A DNA stretch of 64,000 nt from IMG/VR virus record IMGVR_UViG_3300037418_002133, positions 52,087-116,086 of that record; one strand, 5' to 3'. The notes below the pieces were generated by a model. That model did no database searches, was not told the DNA's origin, and worked only from the letters and a program-made list of their open reading frames with translations. Origin of the DNA: a virus. Position numbers and translations under genes: made by a program. Shown here one piece after another: positions 5,254 to 36,636 of this stretch. Within the stretch, counting starts at the first letter, position 1. Each line of letters starts with the position of its first letter.

Positions 5254-5865
5254 ATGACAAACCCCGACAGTCTTCCCCGCTACATCGGCATTTGCGGCAA
5301 TCCGAAGTCCGGTAAGTCGCTGGTTCAGCAGATTCTGATGGAACATTACAACGTCACGCCGGTCGATGACGGTTTCATCCTACGTTCGATCGCCATGCAG
5401 CATATGGGCGCCAGTCACAACGACGTTCACACCCAAGAAGGCAAGGCGCAGTTGGCCTATTGGCCCGACAAGACGCCGATCCTTGATGATCGCACCGGCG
5501 AGCATATGACCTGGCGTCTCGTGCTCGGTCGCGTTGGTGAACAGCTTGAACGTCTGATCGGCCCCTATGTAATGCCGATGACCGCGTGCGCGGCGTTGAG
5601 CGGCCCAGGCCCCTTCTCGTTCGGCTCGGTGCGCAAGGTGCAGGGCCGCTACTTCAAGGAGCGCGGCGGACTGATCATCGGCGTGCGCAACCCGATGGCG
5701 CAGCCGACCGGCAATGCTTTCGACGTGTTCGACGAGAGCCTGGTCGACGTCTGGATCGAGAACGACGCGCTCTACCGCGGACTGAGCCATCGCGAGGCAT
5801 TGGCGGATCTGGAAACCAAGGTTGATCAGCTTGTTGCTGACTGCTCTTGGGCGCGAGCCGCCTGA
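5254..5865 (+). CDS. P-loop kinase, likely deoxynucleoside monophosphate kinase
   Basis: N-terminal IGICGNPKSGKS; size and layout of phage dNMP kinases. Confidence 0.65.
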   Translation: MTNPDSLPRYIGICGNPKSGKSLVQQILMEHYNVTPVDDGFILRSIAMQHMGASHNDVHTQEGKAQLAYWPDKTPILDDRTGEHMTWRLVLGRVGEQLERLIGPYVMPMTACAALSGPGPFSFGSVRKVQGRYFKERGGLIIGVRNPMAQPTGNAFDVFDESLVDVWIENDALYRGLSHREALADLETKVDQLVADCSWARAA

Positions 5866-7845: not shown

Positions 7846-8119
7846 AACCAAGGGCGTCAAAGTCCCCTCGCCTCCCCAGCGTCGCGGCATCATCGCCCAA
7901 GTCCCAACACCCGTCGCGGCGCCGGACAACCTGTCCAAGCCCAACTCCGGACTACAGGATATGAATTTCAAGATGTCGCCTGAATTTCATCGCGCCTTCA
8001 AAATCACCGCCTCGATCCGCGGCATGGCGATGAAGGATTTGCTTGAAGCCTCGTTCCGATGCTGGGTAGAACATTACGGCGACGATCAAGCCAAAGCTCT
8101 CCTTCCTCCGAAAGAATGA
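7820..8119 (+). CDS. small ribbon-helix-helix centromere-binding protein (ParG-like)
   Basis: Follows parA; flexible N-terminus then MNFKMSPEFHRAFKITASIRGMAMKDLL. Confidence 0.7.
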   Translation: MSPASNGPETKGVKVPSPPQRRGIIAQVPTPVAAPDNLSKPNSGLQDMNFKMSPEFHRAFKITASIRGMAMKDLLEASFRCWVEHYGDDQAKALLPPKE

Positions 8120-8120
8120 C

Positions 8121-8351
8121 ATGCGTTCACTGATTTTGCTGTCCACGCTTCTGCTCGCCGGCTGCGGAGGTGGCTGGAATAGACTCGACCCGCCCCTGAT
8201 TGATATGTCCGGCGTCGATCGCGCCAAGTACGACCAGGATCTCGCCTATTGCACCAAGCTCAAGGCGGAATCGACCTTCGTGGGCAATGCGCAGTTGATT
8301 AGCCGCTGCATGACTGAACGCGGCTACCGGGTCACCAGCGCCAGAACGTAA
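8121..8351 (+). CDS. small lipoprotein
   Basis: Signal peptide with lipobox LLAGC. Confidence 0.7.
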   Translation: MRSLILLSTLLLAGCGGGWNRLDPPLIDMSGVDRAKYDQDLAYCTKLKAESTFVGNAQLISRCMTERGYRVTSART

Positions 8352-8369
8352 ATCGATTTGAGGTTCACG

Positions 8370-8585
8370 ATGTCACTTCACGACGATCTCTTGCGAATGG
8401 CGCGTCTGGTTCAAAAGGACGAAGCGCGCATCGGCGTCTACTCTACCGGTGAGGTCATTGCTGTCGCGCTCATTCTCAATCGACCGGATCTGCTTCCACC
8501 CAGATACAGCAAGATCCTCGAAGCGGTTGATCGGCTTGGCGAAGAGTGGTTCCAGGTCGCCATCCAGGTGCAGCGCGAACTCTAG
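8370..8585 (+). CDS. hypothetical protein
   Basis: GAGG RBS upstream of ATG 8370. Confidence 0.6.
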   Translation: MSLHDDLLRMARLVQKDEARIGVYSTGEVIAVALILNRPDLLPPRYSKILEAVDRLGEEWFQVAIQVQREL

Positions 8586-8998
8586 CCTGCGACAAGGTTA
8601 GGGCAATATTCCTATTGGTGCGGGGATCCGGATGATGTATCCGGGAGTTGGCATGGGTCAATTCTTGTGACAAGGTTAGGACGGAAAAGCTGTCGAGGGG
8701 CCAGAAGGCAATGCCTTCGCTGCATCGCACAAAAACCTAAGACATCGCATCTGTTGCAATTATGCAACACACGACGCGTCCCGCGAAACGCGTGACATTT
8801 CCGCAACACAGCGTTTCTTGCGATTCTGTGTTTGTGCAGCGCACAATAAAATAAACACGATTTCGCATTGCAACATGCTATGCGCAAAATGCATAACACG
8901 ATTTAGTTAAGTAGTGATAATTATGTCACACGTGCTGCTGCAACAAATCTGTAGCATGATCAAGTCACGAATTGTTACACTCTGTAACATCATGTGAT

Positions 8999-9028
8999 TT
9001 GTTCGCGTTGCTGTAACACGTTATAACT
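8999..9028 (+). promoter_or_regulatory. sigma70-like promoter for the island genes
   Basis: TTGTTC-N17-TATAAC about 47 bp upstream of ATG 9075. Confidence 0.45.
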
Positions 9029-9074
9029 TAGTCACGTTAGCAATGACGCTAACACTACAGAGTGAGAAACGACG

Positions 9075-9692
9075 ATGACGAAAGTTAATGACAAGATCGC
9101 GAACTACGTTGCAGAACTCAACAGCGCGCTTGACGCTCGCGCTTCGTATGAACACGACAAGAGCGCTGCGAACGACTCGATTCAGACGTGCATCGCAGCG
9201 CTTCGTAAGAGCGTCACACACGTCGATATTGCGAGCGTGCTACTCTCATGCGACGTCGATTCAAACTTCATCAATCGCAGCGAGCGTTCGAATAATCGTT
9301 ATAACGTCTACGCTGCACAGAAAGTCGACAACGTCGCGCGCGCTGTCAAAAGCGTTGCAGAACTGAATCACTATTCGCTTGCGATCTTGCGCGTTGCGCT
9401 CGCTGTCGAAAAGATCGACTCTAAGCTGTCGCACAAAGACGCTGTAGCAGCGTGCAGCGCGTCTGTGAAGCACAGCGACGCGAAGCGCGAATCAATCATC
9501 AAGTCGCTACGCTACGCAAAGCACGTCGCTGCAAATACAGCGTCAACGCAATCGTCGTCGTCGATTAACGCGCTTCAAACGTGTCACATTCTGAGCGAAG
9601 CGCGCGATGCTGCGAACAACATCGTCTACAGCGTCAATCGCGAGAGCGAAGCGTTCAAGACGCTCGCGAAGAGATACGAACTCGCGATCTGA
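9075..9692 (+). CDS. Gly/Pro/Trp-free protein, paralog of 11993-12802; putative DNA-binding immediate-early factor
   Basis: Colinear similarity to the 11993 protein (FINRS..RYNVYA vs FVNRS..RYNVYA; TASTQSSSSINAL vs TAPTQASSTMQAL). Confidence 0.85.
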   Translation: MTKVNDKIANYVAELNSALDARASYEHDKSAANDSIQTCIAALRKSVTHVDIASVLLSCDVDSNFINRSERSNNRYNVYAAQKVDNVARAVKSVAELNHYSLAILRVALAVEKIDSKLSHKDAVAACSASVKHSDAKRESIIKSLRYAKHVAANTASTQSSSSINALQTCHILSEARDAANNIVYSVNRESEAFKTLAKRYELAI

Positions 9693-9702
9693 CAACGCAA
9701 TG

Positions 9703-9730
9703 CAGAGTGACGCTTCACAGCGTCACTCTG
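9703..9730 (+). terminator. hairpin after the island gene, built without GG/CC
   Basis: CAGAGTGACGCT-tcac-AGCGTCACTCTG 12-bp stem. Confidence 0.55.
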
Positions 9731-9773
9731 TAACATCACTTAATCAAGTCACCGCAAACACAGAGCTAGAACA

Positions 9774-9959
9774 ATGCAGCATGAGAAACGACTAATGAAG
9801 CAACGCGAATCAGCGCGCGTCGAAAAGTACAAGCGCGCGTTTGACTGCGACTCTGTTGACGCTGATTATCTATTCGACGACGTCGCACGCGACTGTGACG
9901 CGACGTTAGCAGCGATCGAACTGCGAGAATCGATCACGCGCTACGCGATAGCGCACTAG
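9774..9959 (+). CDS. small Gly/Pro/Trp-free hypothetical protein
   Basis: 61-aa ORF inside the GG/CC-free island, followed by a hairpin. Confidence 0.6.
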   Translation: MQHEKRLMKQRESARVEKYKRAFDCDSVDADYLFDDVARDCDATLAAIELRESITRYAIAH

Positions 9960-9970
9960 ACGCGTGACAT

Positions 9971-10011
9971 AGTCGAAAGTCTATAGACGAAAGTTTATTA
10001 GACTTTCGACT
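9971..10011. terminator. inverted repeat closing the island
   Basis: AGTCGAAAGTCTA ... TAGACTTTCGACT 13-bp arms. Confidence 0.5.
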
Positions 10012-10543
10012 GTGACATTTAAGCCTCACTGTTGCTCTGAAGCCACTGTGGTATGCCCGCCACAGTGGCATTTTTGCCACAGGCGAACCCCATGGGGAGG
10101 GTAAGGCAGACCTGAAATCCCAAGGATTTCAAGCGGTCTGCCGATCCCATGGATCCCACCGGTTCCTAATCCCATACCTAGTGACCGGTTCCCATGCCCA
10201 TCCATGGCGATCGGTTCCGGACGCCAAAACCCATGGCAGGCTTCCTTGCCGGACAGGGCACCCATAGCAGGCGCCCTCTCCTTTTGGCTGCTGGCTACTC
10301 CTCGGCTGTGCCAGGCACCATCCACACCGACGAGGAAGCCCCGTAGACGTCAGTACGACGAGCGAACATCGACGACATGCGAGCGATTTCCATGAGCTTG
10401 TTTATGCATCCGAAGCGCATAAGCCCAAACGTATTCAACTTGGGCTGATAGAGGATGATCATGGTGTTTTCCTCAGATGAAGAAGGCGGCGATGATGAAG
10501 GCCCCAACGATCATGATGGGGTAGCTGATGAACTCGTCGAGCA

Positions 10544-10780
10544 TCACTGGAACTCCACCGGTACGAAGCCGAGGCTGCGGCTGGCGTTCTCCAGGTGCGA
10601 CCGGGCGATGTCGAGGGAATATATTCCGCTCTCGTCCTTGGAGATTTGCTTCACCGCAGCGTTGAGCCAGGTCAGGGCGTAGCGCAGGTGTTCCTCAGCG
10701 TCGGTATCGGCGAAGCGACCGATAGCGTTCAGGACGCTCATACGGGCGCGATTGACGAGTGCGAGGCGCTTGCTTCTCAT
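10544..10780 (-). CDS. hypothetical protein
   Basis: GGAG RBS; CC-N9-CC box at 10831-10843 upstream. Confidence 0.65.
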   Translation of the reverse strand: MRSKRLALVNRARMSVLNAIGRFADTDAEEHLRYALTWLNAAVKQISKDESGIYSLDIARSHLENASRSLGFVPVEFQ

Positions 10781-10990
10781 TTTCGATCTCCGTGTTTGCT
10801 CAACACAAAGATCGTCGCATATCGCCTTGTGGGATGCGGTCGGGCGTATAAGGCGAGTTTATACGGCCTGGCGTTTACGGACCGGCCTGGCGATGGAAGA
10901 CGGCCTGGCCGAGGATGACCGGACCGGCCTGAAGCCCATGGAGCGCCATGCCTGCCCATGGAGGACCGAGGGATCTCTAAGGGCGCGTAA

Positions 10991-11024
10991 AACCCTATAG
11001 ATATATAAATATATCTATAGGGTT
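10991..11024. repeat. 16-bp perfect inverted repeat next to a CC-N9-CC box
   Basis: AACCCTATAGATATAT-aa-ATATATCTATAGGGTT; box at 11025-11037. Confidence 0.85.
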
Positions 11025-11037
11025 GGGATGCGAACGG

Positions 11038-11304
11038 CTACGCGAGGCAAAGCTCGCTGGACTGACGGGCTGCTTCTTCGATGCACAGCGCGACGAGGTG
11101 CTGGGCGTTGAAGGCTTTCTCGTGGAGCATCGCTTCGTTGATCGCGGGATCGATCTTGCTGATGGTCATTTCGTTGGTGTCGTAGTTGTAGGACGACGTG
11201 AACAGCACGGTATCTTTGTAGATCGCGCTGAAGGCGCATTCGGGGTTCATCGGGTGCGCGTCGTTGGAAAGCTCGATCTTGATGGTCTTGAGGGTGCTTT
11301 GCAT
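11038..11304 (-). CDS. hypothetical protein
   Basis: Own promoter (box 11353-11365); GAGAG-type RBS. Confidence 0.7.
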   Translation of the reverse strand: MQSTLKTIKIELSNDAHPMNPECAFSAIYKDTVLFTSSYNYDTNEMTISKIDPAINEAMLHEKAFNAQHLVALCIEEAARQSSELCLA

Positions 11305-11367: not shown

Positions 11368-11658
11368 TCAGACGGTCATGTCGAAGGAGATCTTCATGGT
11401 CTCGTCGACGATCAGCTTGCGGAGGGTTTCACTGGAGTTGCAGCGGTAGTAGACGCTGTCTCCCGCAGCAGCTTGCGCGTCGTTGGGATCGAACTCGCTG
11501 TCATGGAGCTGCGTGACGCGCACAGCGAAGCATTTGGTGTCGTCTTTGGCGATCGCGCACGCTTCGATGACGGTCCTTTGGTTCATGACGGAGAAGAAGC
11601 GCTCGCCTAAGTCTTGCGACATGAGGGAATCGAAAGTGGTTTTGTCGATCTGGTGCAT
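11368..11658 (-). CDS. hypothetical protein
   Basis: Start MHQIDK at 11658, downstream of an operator copy at 11681. Confidence 0.7.
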   Translation of the reverse strand: MHQIDKTTFDSLMSQDLGERFFSVMNQRTVIEACAIAKDDTKCFAVRVTQLHDSEFDPNDAQAAAGDSVYYRCNSSETLRKLIVDETMKISFDMTV

Positions 11659-11992
11659 GTTTTGCTCTCGCTGTGAAAATAAGTCAGTTCTGACATACGA
11701 CAGTATAGCTAGGAATGCGAGCGGCGGCTCGTGGTGCGTCCGTTGGGGTATCGAGCTGGGTCTGTAGCTTAGGAGCGCTAAGGACGCACCATGGGGCTTC
11801 CCTAGCGATTTCCCATGGGAAGCCATGGTTCGCCTCGGGACACCACGGCCGCGCCCTCTCCAAAAATCCGCCTTGGTTCGCCAATCGGTCGGTCCCATGG
11901 ACCCCACCGGTTCCAGATACCAAGGATGCCCCATGGTTCACAATTCGCCACAACGAAGGGGAGCCGAAGCTCCCCTCGCTGTCTCGTTCGCC

Positions 11993-23009: not shown

Positions 23010-23702
23010 TCACACCGCCTCCACGCGCTCAAATCGACCATCTTCGAACTCAGCGACAGGACGGACCCAGTAGCGATCGTCATCGCCGCGGTAGATCACA
23101 ACCTCATCCTCGTCCTGGAGGACGGTCTCGGCCGCGATCTGCAACGTGCCGCGCCCGATCTCGGTGTAGGTTGTGCCGCGCTTCTTGTGGCGCCAACGGG
23201 GAAGGGGATCTGCCGAGGGATAAGCCTGTGTCACCACAGGCTCACTCTCTCCCGAAGGTAGAGAGCTGAGACAACCCTCGGCAGAACGACTACCTGGTAA
23301 ACCAGGTTCGTCATCGTAGGCCGCGGTTTCGATTGCGCTACACCATGCGTCACGATGCGTTCGGCAATCTTCCAACGCCTCCCGCAGCACATCGTCACCG
23401 GCCTTGGCGGGCTCGGGGATGAGGGCGGATGTCATGTTGTCAATTTGCGTGAGAAGCCCGATCAAGTCGCCAGTTAACGGCTTCCATTCTGGAGCGGTGG
23501 CCTTGTAGTGCTTTTCCCAAAGCGCAACAGCGAGACGCTCGGCGTAAGCCGCCCCCGCGCTTGACGCTGCGGCGAGACGTAGGGCAGCGACTACTTCCGT
23601 CGACTGACGAATGCCAAGCTGTTGCGGCCTATCGCCGTGCATCGTGAAAAGGCCATCCGATGCTTCGATTTGATCCGCCAGCGTCGTGTATTTGTCGGTC
23701 AT
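23010..23702 (-). CDS. mosaic hypothetical protein with C-terminal DUF1653-like domain
   Basis: RWRHKKRGTTY...VVIYR...WVRPVAEFEDGRFE; GGAG RBS before MTDKY. Confidence 0.6.
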   Translation of the reverse strand: MTDKYTTLADQIEASDGLFTMHGDRPQQLGIRQSTEVVAALRLAAASSAGAAYAERLAVALWEKHYKATAPEWKPLTGDLIGLLTQIDNMTSALIPEPAKAGDDVLREALEDCRTHRDAWCSAIETAAYDDEPGLPGSRSAEGCLSSLPSGESEPVVTQAYPSADPLPRWRHKKRGTTYTEIGRGTLQIAAETVLQDEDEVVIYRGDDDRYWVRPVAEFEDGRFERVEAV

Positions 23703-35688: not shown

Positions 35689-36636
35689 TTACAGACACTC
35701 GTTCGGAAGCATTTTGCGGTACTGGCGGAACCCGACGAAGTTGCCGTGCTGATGAGGATTGAACCAACCGAACCTACCGAAGCCAAGCCCGCCGATATCA
35801 TCAGCCTGCGCGACATGCTCGCAGGGACTGGCGTGAAGCGGCGTCGAGGCCACAAGTTTGTCGTGCAGGGCGATGGCGCGGTCGAGCGTCATGTCGAAGC
35901 CGTCAACGGTCTTGTAGGAGGTCGAGGCACAGCGGGCGACGGATAGCTTGCGTAGAGCCAGACTTATGCGTTCATTAGTTGGATTGATCTTTACTCCATT
36001 GCGAAGGTAATCGATCGTCAGACGAACATCGTCAGGCTGAACAAATGGCATGTGCCACTGACCCGGCTCCAGCGTCTGGATCGTGCTTTCATCGTCCAGA
36101 CACTTCCGAACCTCACGCGCCAGCATCGCAATGTGCGGTTCGGCGTCGGGATGATCGCGCAGCGCGAGGAAGTTGGACCAGGCGACCAGATCCATGCCGG
36201 ACGCGAGCACCGTGATGTGCATCCACGGCTCGATCAGGCGGTTCACGATTTGCTTATGGTAGCCGGCCGCGTCAAAGGCTTCGGCAATGCGAATGACATT
36301 GTCGCGAGCCTCAAGCCACGCTGCTTCGGGCAAGGACGGGCAATCCGTGCCGTCGAATCCGCGATACCGTACCGGCTCGTTGCACTCCTCGAACGCCTGC
36401 ATTCCCTTCTGATTCTTGCCCCAATGCAGCGGCACGAACGGATCGTCCTTGATCGACTGAATCAGTTTGGCGACCGGAATGGCGCGGGAGCTGGCCGAGT
36501 TCTTCGAAAGCATTCGGTGCGTCATGAACTCGGCGTGGATACAGCGCGGATAGCGGAGCAATAGGGTGCTCAACACCTTGTCCGACGATGCTGCGTTACG
36601 GCTGCGAAGAATGGTCTTGGCCGAAATCGTGGTCAT
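35689..36636 (-). CDS. thyX: flavin-dependent thymidylate synthase-like protein
   Basis: IHAEFMTHRMLSKNSASSRAIP, HKQIVNRL, FLALR, HASPCEH. Confidence 0.8.
   Translation of the reverse strand: MTTISAKTILRSRNAASSDKVLSTLLLRYPRCIHAEFMTHRMLSKNSASSRAIPVAKLIQSIKDDPFVPLHWGKNQKGMQAFEECNEPVRYRGFDGTDCPSLPEAAWLEARDNVIRIAEAFDAAGYHKQIVNRLIEPWMHITVLASGMDLVAWSNFLALRDHPDAEPHIAMLAREVRKCLDDESTIQTLEPGQWHMPFVQPDDVRLTIDYLRNGVKINPTNERISLALRKLSVARCASTSYKTVDGFDMTLDRAIALHDKLVASTPLHASPCEHVAQADDIGGLGFGRFGWFNPHQHGNFVGFRQYRKMLPNECL

Follow-up and report, generated by a model that had tools for sequence, protein, structure and literature searches.

A phage-plasmid transcription unit kept free of the dinucleotide GG/CC

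We find that a single transcription unit of an alphaproteobacterial phage-plasmid is kept free of the duplex dinucleotide step GG/CC. The unit occupies a 1221-nt island (positions 8803-10023) in a 64,000-nt stretch of viral DNA, here called the window, which corresponds to positions 52087-116086 of the 116,086-bp IMG/VR virus record IMGVR_UViG_3300037418_002133 (G000:C1). It holds two open reading frames (ORFs), a predicted winged-helix regulator (ORF1) and a small acidic protein (ORF2). An earlier inspection of the letters alone (hereafter, the original prediction) had proposed that strong selection protects one transcription unit from a 2-bp word. Resampling, codon-junction and non-coding counts, together with conservation of the purge among relatives, show that ongoing nucleotide-level selection keeps the whole unit free of GG/CC.

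An operon without GG or CC

Where the original prediction had reported zero GG and one CC against roughly 150 expected, our recount gives 0 GG, 1 CC and an expectation of ~148 GG+CC from base composition (A354 C311 G291 T265). The island was described as about half G+C and rich in CG/GC steps; it is ~49% G+C, with CG (145 occurrences) and GC (124) enriched (odds 1.96 and 1.67, respectively) and AG, GA and AA not enriched. The two longest GG/CC-free gaps of the 116,086-bp genome (951 and 272 nt) are adjacent and jointly make up the island, the third-longest is 84 nt, and across the whole genome no other dinucleotide class has a comparable gap. The genome-wide GG+CC scan that had been suggested therefore returns the island as the single such stretch in 116 kb. 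Its boundaries are indeed sharp: GG occurs at 18 per 100 nt immediately upstream, and the sequence immediately downstream has GG or CC at 7-18 per 100 nt. The purge spans the promoter candidates, ribosome-binding sites, two ORFs and two hairpins, all of which we find without GG/CC, and neither protein contains any Gly, Pro or Trp, again as first described.

When ORF1 was resampled synonymously according to genome codon usage (5000 draws), the resulting genes carried 54.1±5.9 GG/CC (minimum 33), and shuffling its codon order gave 33.6±4.3 GG/CC at codon junctions; the observed number is 0 in both cases. The 419 non-coding bases of the island contain 1 GG/CC versus 35 expected. A protein-level need and tRNA depletion are ruled out by the purged junctions and non-coding bases, and the enrichment of CG/GC without that of AG, GA or AA is the reverse of a deamination footprint. 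We thus reject protein need, tRNA supply and mutational bias on the basis of the resampling, the junction and non-coding counts and the dinucleotide odds. An exclusion of Gly, Pro and Trp at the protein level, or erosion by a CC-specific deaminase, does agree with the absence of these residues from both proteins, but unrelated cargo proteins follow the same rule and the ORF1 protein is well conserved, with invariant motifs; such an origin is hardly credible.

Some 25 related loci, with protein identities as low as 27%, keep the purge. The homologues of ORF1 number 70 (~200 amino acids, 41-79% identity), nearly all of them with 0 Gly, 0 Pro and 0 Trp. There is a single island per genome, measuring 1279 nt in Rhizobium phage V1VFA-S, 724+151 nt in a Shinella plasmid, 1531 nt in G002 (an IMG/VR record), 979 nt in G004 and 2.3 kb in G005, where it comprises three genes with ~4 GG and ~24 CC. 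Ten additional loci are purged. The rule is old, since ORF1 shares no more than 27-31% identity with its counterparts in the islands of V1VFA-S and the Shinella plasmid. Genes after the regulator vary among loci (products of 57, 61, 63, 85, 138, 146 and 231 amino acids) and are purged too; because these cargo genes are non-homologous, the ban belongs to the transcription unit and not to one gene. The possibility raised at the outset, that homologous islands in relatives might have normal GG/CC, is not what we find.

One lineage has relaxed the ban. The homologue on a Methylobacterium oryzae plasmid (L007/W01, NZ_CP090351.1, 44971-45579) has 18 GG versus 42 expected and 53 CC versus 80 expected, with GG/CC back at synonymous and junction sites and 2 Gly, 1 Pro and 0 Trp in its protein. 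Judged from its sequence, this is what a decaying purge should look like once the constraint is lost, a pattern that supports continuing selection. An RIIB-like gene is the sole gene that is found in all purged genomes yet is absent from this relaxed plasmid, which is a lead only (n = 1); an RIIA-like gene is present in 4/5 purged genomes, and the M. oryzae plasmid lacks the RIIA/RIIB-like block. Salmonella phage SSU5 (L070, JQ965645) exhibits only weak GG/CC depletion; its longest run lacking both words spans 154 nt (95692-95846). In that phage, the weakly depleted SSU5_119 and SSU5_120 (record positions 95659-96765) occupy the syntenic place, beside helicase and ParB genes.

Strand polarity and tolerated contexts

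In every locus examined, the zone free of sense-strand GG encloses the zone free of CC, and where the purge leaks, CC comes back first. Sense GG numbers 2 (30 expected) versus 28 CC (60 expected) in L079, 0 (38 expected) versus 10 CC (50 expected) in L076, and 4 versus 24 CC in L044. Some neighbouring genes are purged of sense GG only. These lie at 11038-11304 of the window, at 97635-97940 (0 of 23 expected) and 98252-98899 (5 of 44) of G005, and at 23098-23442 of V1VFA-S.

Leftover sites, read in the CC orientation (n = 95), are ACC in 52 cases (background 21%), GCC in 24 (background 41%), TCC in 15 and CCC in 4. These context statistics are dominated by a few leaky loci: the first 44 leftover sites depart strongly from background (χ2 test, P = 1.6e-9), but 28 of the 44 come from one locus. 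The commonest leftover form is CACC(G), and the few leftover sense GGs are its reverse complement, CGGTG. Leftover ACC occurs in all three codon phases (17 Thr codons, 16 junctions and 4 before Pro codons). In contrast, GC followed by C across a codon junction never occurs, though codons ending in GC are common. The sequence GCGGAAAAG is seen once, in L044.

This tolerance is strand-symmetric and independent of reading frame, and therefore argues for an agent that reads DNA instead of codons or a single RNA. We infer that the selecting agent reads DNA rather than protein, recognizing 5'-CC-3' and doing so least well after A (ACC, CACCG), and that CC harms expression most on the template strand. 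These aspects were not part of the original prediction: sense GG is banned more strictly than CC, leftovers are mostly ACC/CACCG, and the one relaxed lineage retains a Gly/Pro-poor protein.

The operon, its regulator and the phage-plasmid

In its layout the island is an operon with sigma-70-like promoters, GAGAGA-type ribosome sites, a regulator gene and then one or two cargo genes (Table 1). Judged by these promoter matches, unmodified host RNA polymerase would transcribe it. Relatives carry CTTGAC-N17-TATTCT at the equivalent place, ~40-80 nt ahead of the start codon. The ribosome-binding sites of the island are GAGTGAGAAA and CAGAGCTAGAA; AGAGAGA stands 8-12 nt 5' of the ATG in 9 of 14 relatives' loci, and ribosome sites elsewhere in the phage genome are mostly GGAG/GAGG/AGGA. 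The ORF2 product has no homologue in 6 related genomes and no Pfam or PHROG match below E 0.01. Rfam searches of 8500-10400 (E up to 1) returned no match, and a tRNA scan of the window found none.

At the 5' edge of the GG-free zone, an element of the form GGCAT-N25/26-TAAGACTTCGA recurs in 8 loci, including V1VFA-S, the Shinella plasmid and other distant ones. Contigs from three independent soil/rhizosphere runs all end within ~35 nt of one another at 8619-8653. This break zone lies ~60-90 nt upstream of the boundary element, and strain variation, a repeat or a molecule end could each produce it. In four soil/rhizosphere runs, all contigs seen are identical to the window and thus show no polymorphism. 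Cumulative GC skew gives no signal around the island, and no repeat feature is annotated near the island in the GenBank records. In G000 and G004, the 127-bp terminal repeats are overlaps left by the assembly.

ORF1 is predicted to be a winged-helix protein. Its AlphaFold2 (AF2) model (predicted local distance difference test, pLDDT, 95.8) places the winged helix in residues 90-203, with helices at 136-143 and 153-169 followed by strands at 173-177 and 183-187 (a helix-turn-helix and a beta-hairpin wing). Structural comparison by VIA gave Z 8.2 to BpsR (root-mean-square deviation, rmsd, 2.3 over 77 residues) and Z 7.7-7.8 to histone H1/H5 globular domains; the matches overall have Z 7-8 and rmsd 2.3-3.0 over 74-83 residues, a Z range typical of common arrangements. 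A Foldseek search of the PDB found no match at E 0.001 or better, with weaker winged-helix matches to MarR, ArsR and ORC proteins. Pfam and PHROG searches with ORF1 and two long paralogues encoded by the same phage found no match below E 0.01. ORF1 thus has the fold common to MarR/ArsR-type winged-helix regulators without membership of a curated family. The close family of ORF1 shows no variation in the recognition helix, NTASTQSSSSINALQ. By these comparisons, ORF1 is paralogous to the phage's own longer winged-helix regulators, from which it differs in being short and recoded, and it would be expected to bind the same DNA sites as the long paralogues, or similar ones.

Most of the rest of the genome is served by a putative phage promoter class, TGCC(G/A)-N7-TTCCG-N10-GCTATA(N)T, which was verified at 12 sites. 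Its two invariant CCs lie one helical turn apart, and the preceding base is G, T or C in 23/24. The palindrome AGTCAG-AA/TT-CTGACT occurs in ~32 copies in the genome (26 perfect; 0 expected in shuffles), nearly always 4-70 nt 5' of a start codon and just past the -10 of phage promoters. Relatives have ~40 copies of AGTCAG-NN-CTGACT, the Shinella plasmid has 7 imperfect ones and V1VFA-S none. From its placement, this palindrome is probably the operator of a global regulator. Phage P1 C1 repressor has many scattered operators, to which the ~32 operator-like sites can be likened.

The two CCATGG arrays near the island have irregular spacing and units of the type TTAGGAACCGG, and they lie on either side of the cargo region that separates the island from the long paralogue. 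A similar array lies directly upstream of the island in L037, L041, L043, L044, L045 and L047. Such arrays may serve as an origin or a centromere, or may bind a regulator. The two second-tier genes within this region are convergent with the island, and the motif CCGTTCGCATCCCAA follows each.

On its gene content, the genome is that of a ~116-kb alphaproteobacterial siphovirus-type phage-plasmid of the RHEph10/pLM21S1/V1VFA-S kind. We assign it to the phage-plasmids because a siphovirus structural and replication module and partition genes occur together on a 105-125 kb replicon. The structural genes comprise portal, tape measure and J-like tail protein; replication and recombination genes comprise a DnaE-type polymerase, ribonucleotide reductase, SbcCD, a RecA/UvsX-like protein and two DnaB-type helicases; and there are further genes for CobS/CobT-like, RIIA/RIIB-like, ParA and ParB_N proteins. 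Core genes are 40-76% identical to those of V1VFA-S and of Shinella and Methylobacterium plasmids. The relatives include Rhizobium phages V1VFA-S, B1VFA, RHph_X66 and RHph_N1_10, 116-119 kb plasmids of Methylobacterium, Shinella, Rhizobium and Sinorhizobium sp. LM21, and a 109-kb Faunimonas pinastri contig. Phage-plasmids of the RHEph10/pLM21S1 type are relatives of the AB group and the SSU5 supergroup (PMC7969092). The element itself is present in rhizosphere and soil metagenomes. A scan of genome contigs yielded one locus (Faunimonas pinastri) and a metagenome scan three loci, and blastn of 8000-11000 against a phage collection gave no match.

The most conserved genes of the family (59-76% identity, exceeding capsid and portal) encode a 411-amino acid protein (PHROG 886) and a 211-amino acid ABC-type ATPase. 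They lie beside ParB_N genes and the terminase (G000:C1:51712-53560; window up to 1474, minus strand). Also conserved in the family are a gene with a weak ThyX-like match (26 bits, barely above the Pfam cut-off; window 35689-36636, minus strand) and a dNMP-kinase-like gene (5254-5865, plus strand), which might point to non-standard pyrimidine metabolism.

Table 1. Features of the island and its surroundings, in window positions except where the genome is named
Feature	Position	Strand	Remarks
Boundary element GGCAAT-N25-TAAGACATCG	8707-8748	+	Holds the last + strand GG
Sense-GG-free zone	8707-10050	+	1343 nt; longest GG-free run of the genome (runner-up 151 nt)
Sigma-70-like promoter candidate ATAACA-N17-GATAAT	8893-8921	+	Consensus scan only
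Sigma-70-like promoter candidate TTGTTC-N17-TATAAC	8999-9027	+	Read from sequence; ~45 nt 5' of ORF1
Purine-rich, GG-free ribosome-binding site GAGTGAGAAA	9058-9069	+	Ahead of ORF1
ORF1 (P0001)	9075-9692	+	205 aa; 0 Gly/Pro/Trp; short winged-helix protein (predicted)
Hairpin after ORF1	9701-9732	+	14 bp; -23.8 kcal/mol, z -6.0; no GG/CC
Sole CC of the island	9752-9753	+	Between ORF1 stop (9692) and ORF2 start (9774); in GTCACCGCAAA, tolerated CACCG context
ORF2 (P0002)	9774-9959	+	61 aa, acidic; 0 Gly/Pro/Trp; lineage-specific cargo
Long hairpin at 3' end of island	9964-10018	+	-30.1 kcal/mol, z -7.6; no GG/CC
Canonical intrinsic terminator (GC stem + T run)	10042-10069	+	Contains GG/CC; directly outside island
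CCATGG-centred repeat array	10070-10300		Very GG/CC-rich; adjoins island
Second-tier gene, 88 aa	11038-11304	-	Own sense strand GG 0 (12.6 expected), CC 25; GAGAGC ribosome site
Second-tier gene, ~96 aa from ATG 11657	11368-11657	-	3 sense-strand GG; GAGAGC ribosome site; preceded by palindrome TCAGAACTGACTT
Second CCATGG-repeat array	11790-11940		
Long paralogue of ORF1, 280 aa	11993-12835	-	Normal GG/CC, Gly and Pro; acidic N-terminal extension; recognition-helix motif type T-Q-SS..AL as in ORF1
Second long paralogue, 260 aa	24057-24839	-	More divergent; normal Gly, Pro and GG/CC; acidic N-terminal extension; same motif type
Phage promoter sites (putative)	57152, 55660, 50245, 48521, 46600, 42276, 37468, 24804, 20664, 13185 (-); 15557 (+); genome 9987 (-)	as given	
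AGTCAG-NN-CTGACT examples	3351, 5242, 19930, 29019, 35658, 40549, 49124, 57133, 63451		

Candidate agents and significance

The explanation that we tentatively favour, as one possibility among several, is a phage-imposed block to elongation by host RNA polymerase at CC, above all on the template strand. The block could come from a base modification that virion DNA carries, or from a shut-off factor resembling T4 Alc. Ordinary genes that contain GG/CC would then be unreadable by host polymerase alone, and an operon without the target would escape the block and start or sustain the regulatory programme. A polymerase block fits because selection is unit-wide, is strongest on the template strand and follows a strand-symmetric sequence rule, and a bootstrap role fits because the operon has a candidate host-type promoter and a recoded regulator paralogue. 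We consider it somewhat more doubtful that several unrelated phage groups use such an agent, one that reads template CC, stops host RNA polymerase and tolerates ACC, with GG/CC-free bootstrap operons as its footprint.

The Alc factor of phage T4 halts elongating host RNA polymerase, depending on the state of the cytosines in the transcribed DNA. An Alc-like factor would give strand-dependent selection across a transcription unit, as here, although T4 protects its own genes by hydroxymethylcytosine, whereas here the target word has been removed. No Alc homologue turned up in the genome, in which no search was aimed at Alc. The original prediction had preferred a chemical mark at GG/CC on virion DNA that hinders host RNA polymerase. 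That model agrees with the candidate host-type promoter, the stricter avoidance of template CC and the symmetric tolerated context; its enzymatic side gained no support, as no C5 methylase, N4/N6 methylase (PF01555) or TGT/DpdA was found.

Several points weigh against a phage-imposed polymerase block. Six-frame hidden Markov model searches of the whole genome, run with positive controls, gave no match to PF00145, PF01555 or PF01702, though an enzyme of another class could be encoded, and the only hints of unusual nucleotides are the weak ThyX-like match and the dNMP-kinase-like gene. The element also lives as a plasmid, for which a permanent block would be awkward. A block on the template strand would leave the purge of the non-template strand in the core operon unexplained. 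In addition, the sense-GG-free zone extends to 100-400 nt 5' of the nearest promoter candidate, which would need an earlier start or some other reason, and the polarity would be equally expected of an agent that reads GG in RNA.

Such an RNA-level agent, an RNase or a CmdT-like ADP-ribosyltransferase, would cleave or modify single-stranded RNA at GG, with CC avoided because antisense read-through must lack GG. Sense GG is indeed the primary and at times the sole purged word, ribosome sites have changed from GGAG to GAGAGA, and a canonical terminator with GG/CC in its paired stem stands just beyond the zone. Dinucleotide-specific mRNA modification also has a precedent in defence: a preprint describes how CmdT, of the CmdTAC system, ADP-ribosylates GA dinucleotides in mRNA (bioRxiv 10.1101/2024.02.24.581662), an agent that blocks expression and acts on single-stranded nucleic acid, albeit at a different dinucleotide. 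A CmdT-like agent predicts avoidance in mRNA only, as in the sense-only second-tier genes, but the core operon avoids both words and its exception is reverse-complement-symmetric. This CACCG/CGGTG symmetry is not predicted by one RNA reader absent antisense RNA, GG is missing from hairpin stems as well as loops, and the GG-free zone reaches upstream of the nearest promoter candidates. Avoidance of CC in the core operon requires an extra assumption, and no RNase candidate was identified. We judge an RNA target unlikely, if still deserving of attention. Less likely again is that the phage avoids the specificity of its own promoter factor, which would read GCC/TCC and tolerate ACC, such that spurious (mainly antisense) promoters or roadblocks are removed. 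The CCs of the 12 sites of the TGCC-N7-TTCCG-N10-GCTATA class follow G, T or C in 23/24, leftover island sites are mostly ACC, and half-sites in antisense orientation (sense GG) have been removed most strictly. However, a promoter needs two spaced CCs and a -10, so that removing ~150 single sites would be excessive, and the other genes of the phage tolerate thousands of GG/CC.

Evasion of host immunity that targets first-entering DNA had been among the alternatives from the start, through protospacer-adjacent motifs (PAMs; NGG for Cas9, CC for type I-F) or restriction sites. Siphophages V1VFA-S and B1VFA do possess a defined first-injected segment, given their fixed ends and their terminal repeats of 3.6-3.9 kb (PMC12509600); Autographiviridae can escape type I restriction by losing motifs from the early-injected region alone (PMC12455610); and the variable cargo genes resemble anti-defence islands. 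But PAM recognition is independent of the base before CC and of the transcribed strand, and both matter here: ACC is tolerated (52/95 versus 21%) and sense GG is always the stricter ban, which weakens the PAM alternatives. General avoidance of restriction sites is unsupported in an island rich in the palindromes GCGC, CGCG, TCGA and GTCGAC, and protecting 1.2 kb leaves the other 115 kb open to DNA-cleaving systems. We regard immunity evasion as improbable. Very improbable, in our view, is an origin in the intrinsic physics of a heavily transcribed unit, in which sense GG would be removed because of R-loops, G-quadruplexes, pause elements (G-11 G-10) or oxidation hot spots. The polarity fits, sense GG being worse than sense CC, and the order of tolerance (GGT > GGC > GGA > GGG) tracks the length of purine runs. 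Graded effects would nevertheless not yield 0 of ~70, and no other highly expressed phage gene follows the rule. RNA:DNA hybrids are also favoured by GC and AC steps, yet the island is enriched in these, and we reject R-loop energetics on this ground.

Known systems resemble the island in part. The pre-early (first-step-transfer) region of T5 and T7-like leading regions are small blocks read by host polymerase and free of harmful sequences, with variable takeover or anti-defence cargo, which the island would resemble. The words avoided there are 4-8 bp restriction sites of particular hosts, whereas the word avoided here has 2 bp, its avoidance depends on the strand and the flanking base, and whole proteins have been recoded. 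Motif-specific hypermodification, as in CAjan and by Mu Mom, provides short-motif, context-dependent marking. Phage CAjan carries dPreQ0 at GA and GGC (PMC7544227), and GGC (= GCC) ranks with the contexts under the strictest ban in our loci; GA, in contrast, is marked there and not avoided here, where neither DpdA/TGT nor a methylase was found.

Phage genomes are known to avoid restriction sites and PAMs. For a complete ban on a two-letter word across an operon, our full-text literature searches found no precedent, nor any description of dinucleotide-free phage operons; restriction-site loss in early-injected DNA (PMC12455610) and motif-specific hypermodification (PMC7544227) come closest. The ban is strong enough to strip three amino acids from proteins, and lineages with as little as 27% protein identity still retain it. 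This implies that a reader of GG/CC operates in infected cells, with a specificity that tolerates ACC/CACCG and acts foremost on the template strand. Experiments could draw on cultured members of the family, V1VFA-S and B1VFA, which grow on Rhizobium leguminosarum. If the agent is real, GG/CC-free operons would provide a way to find it.

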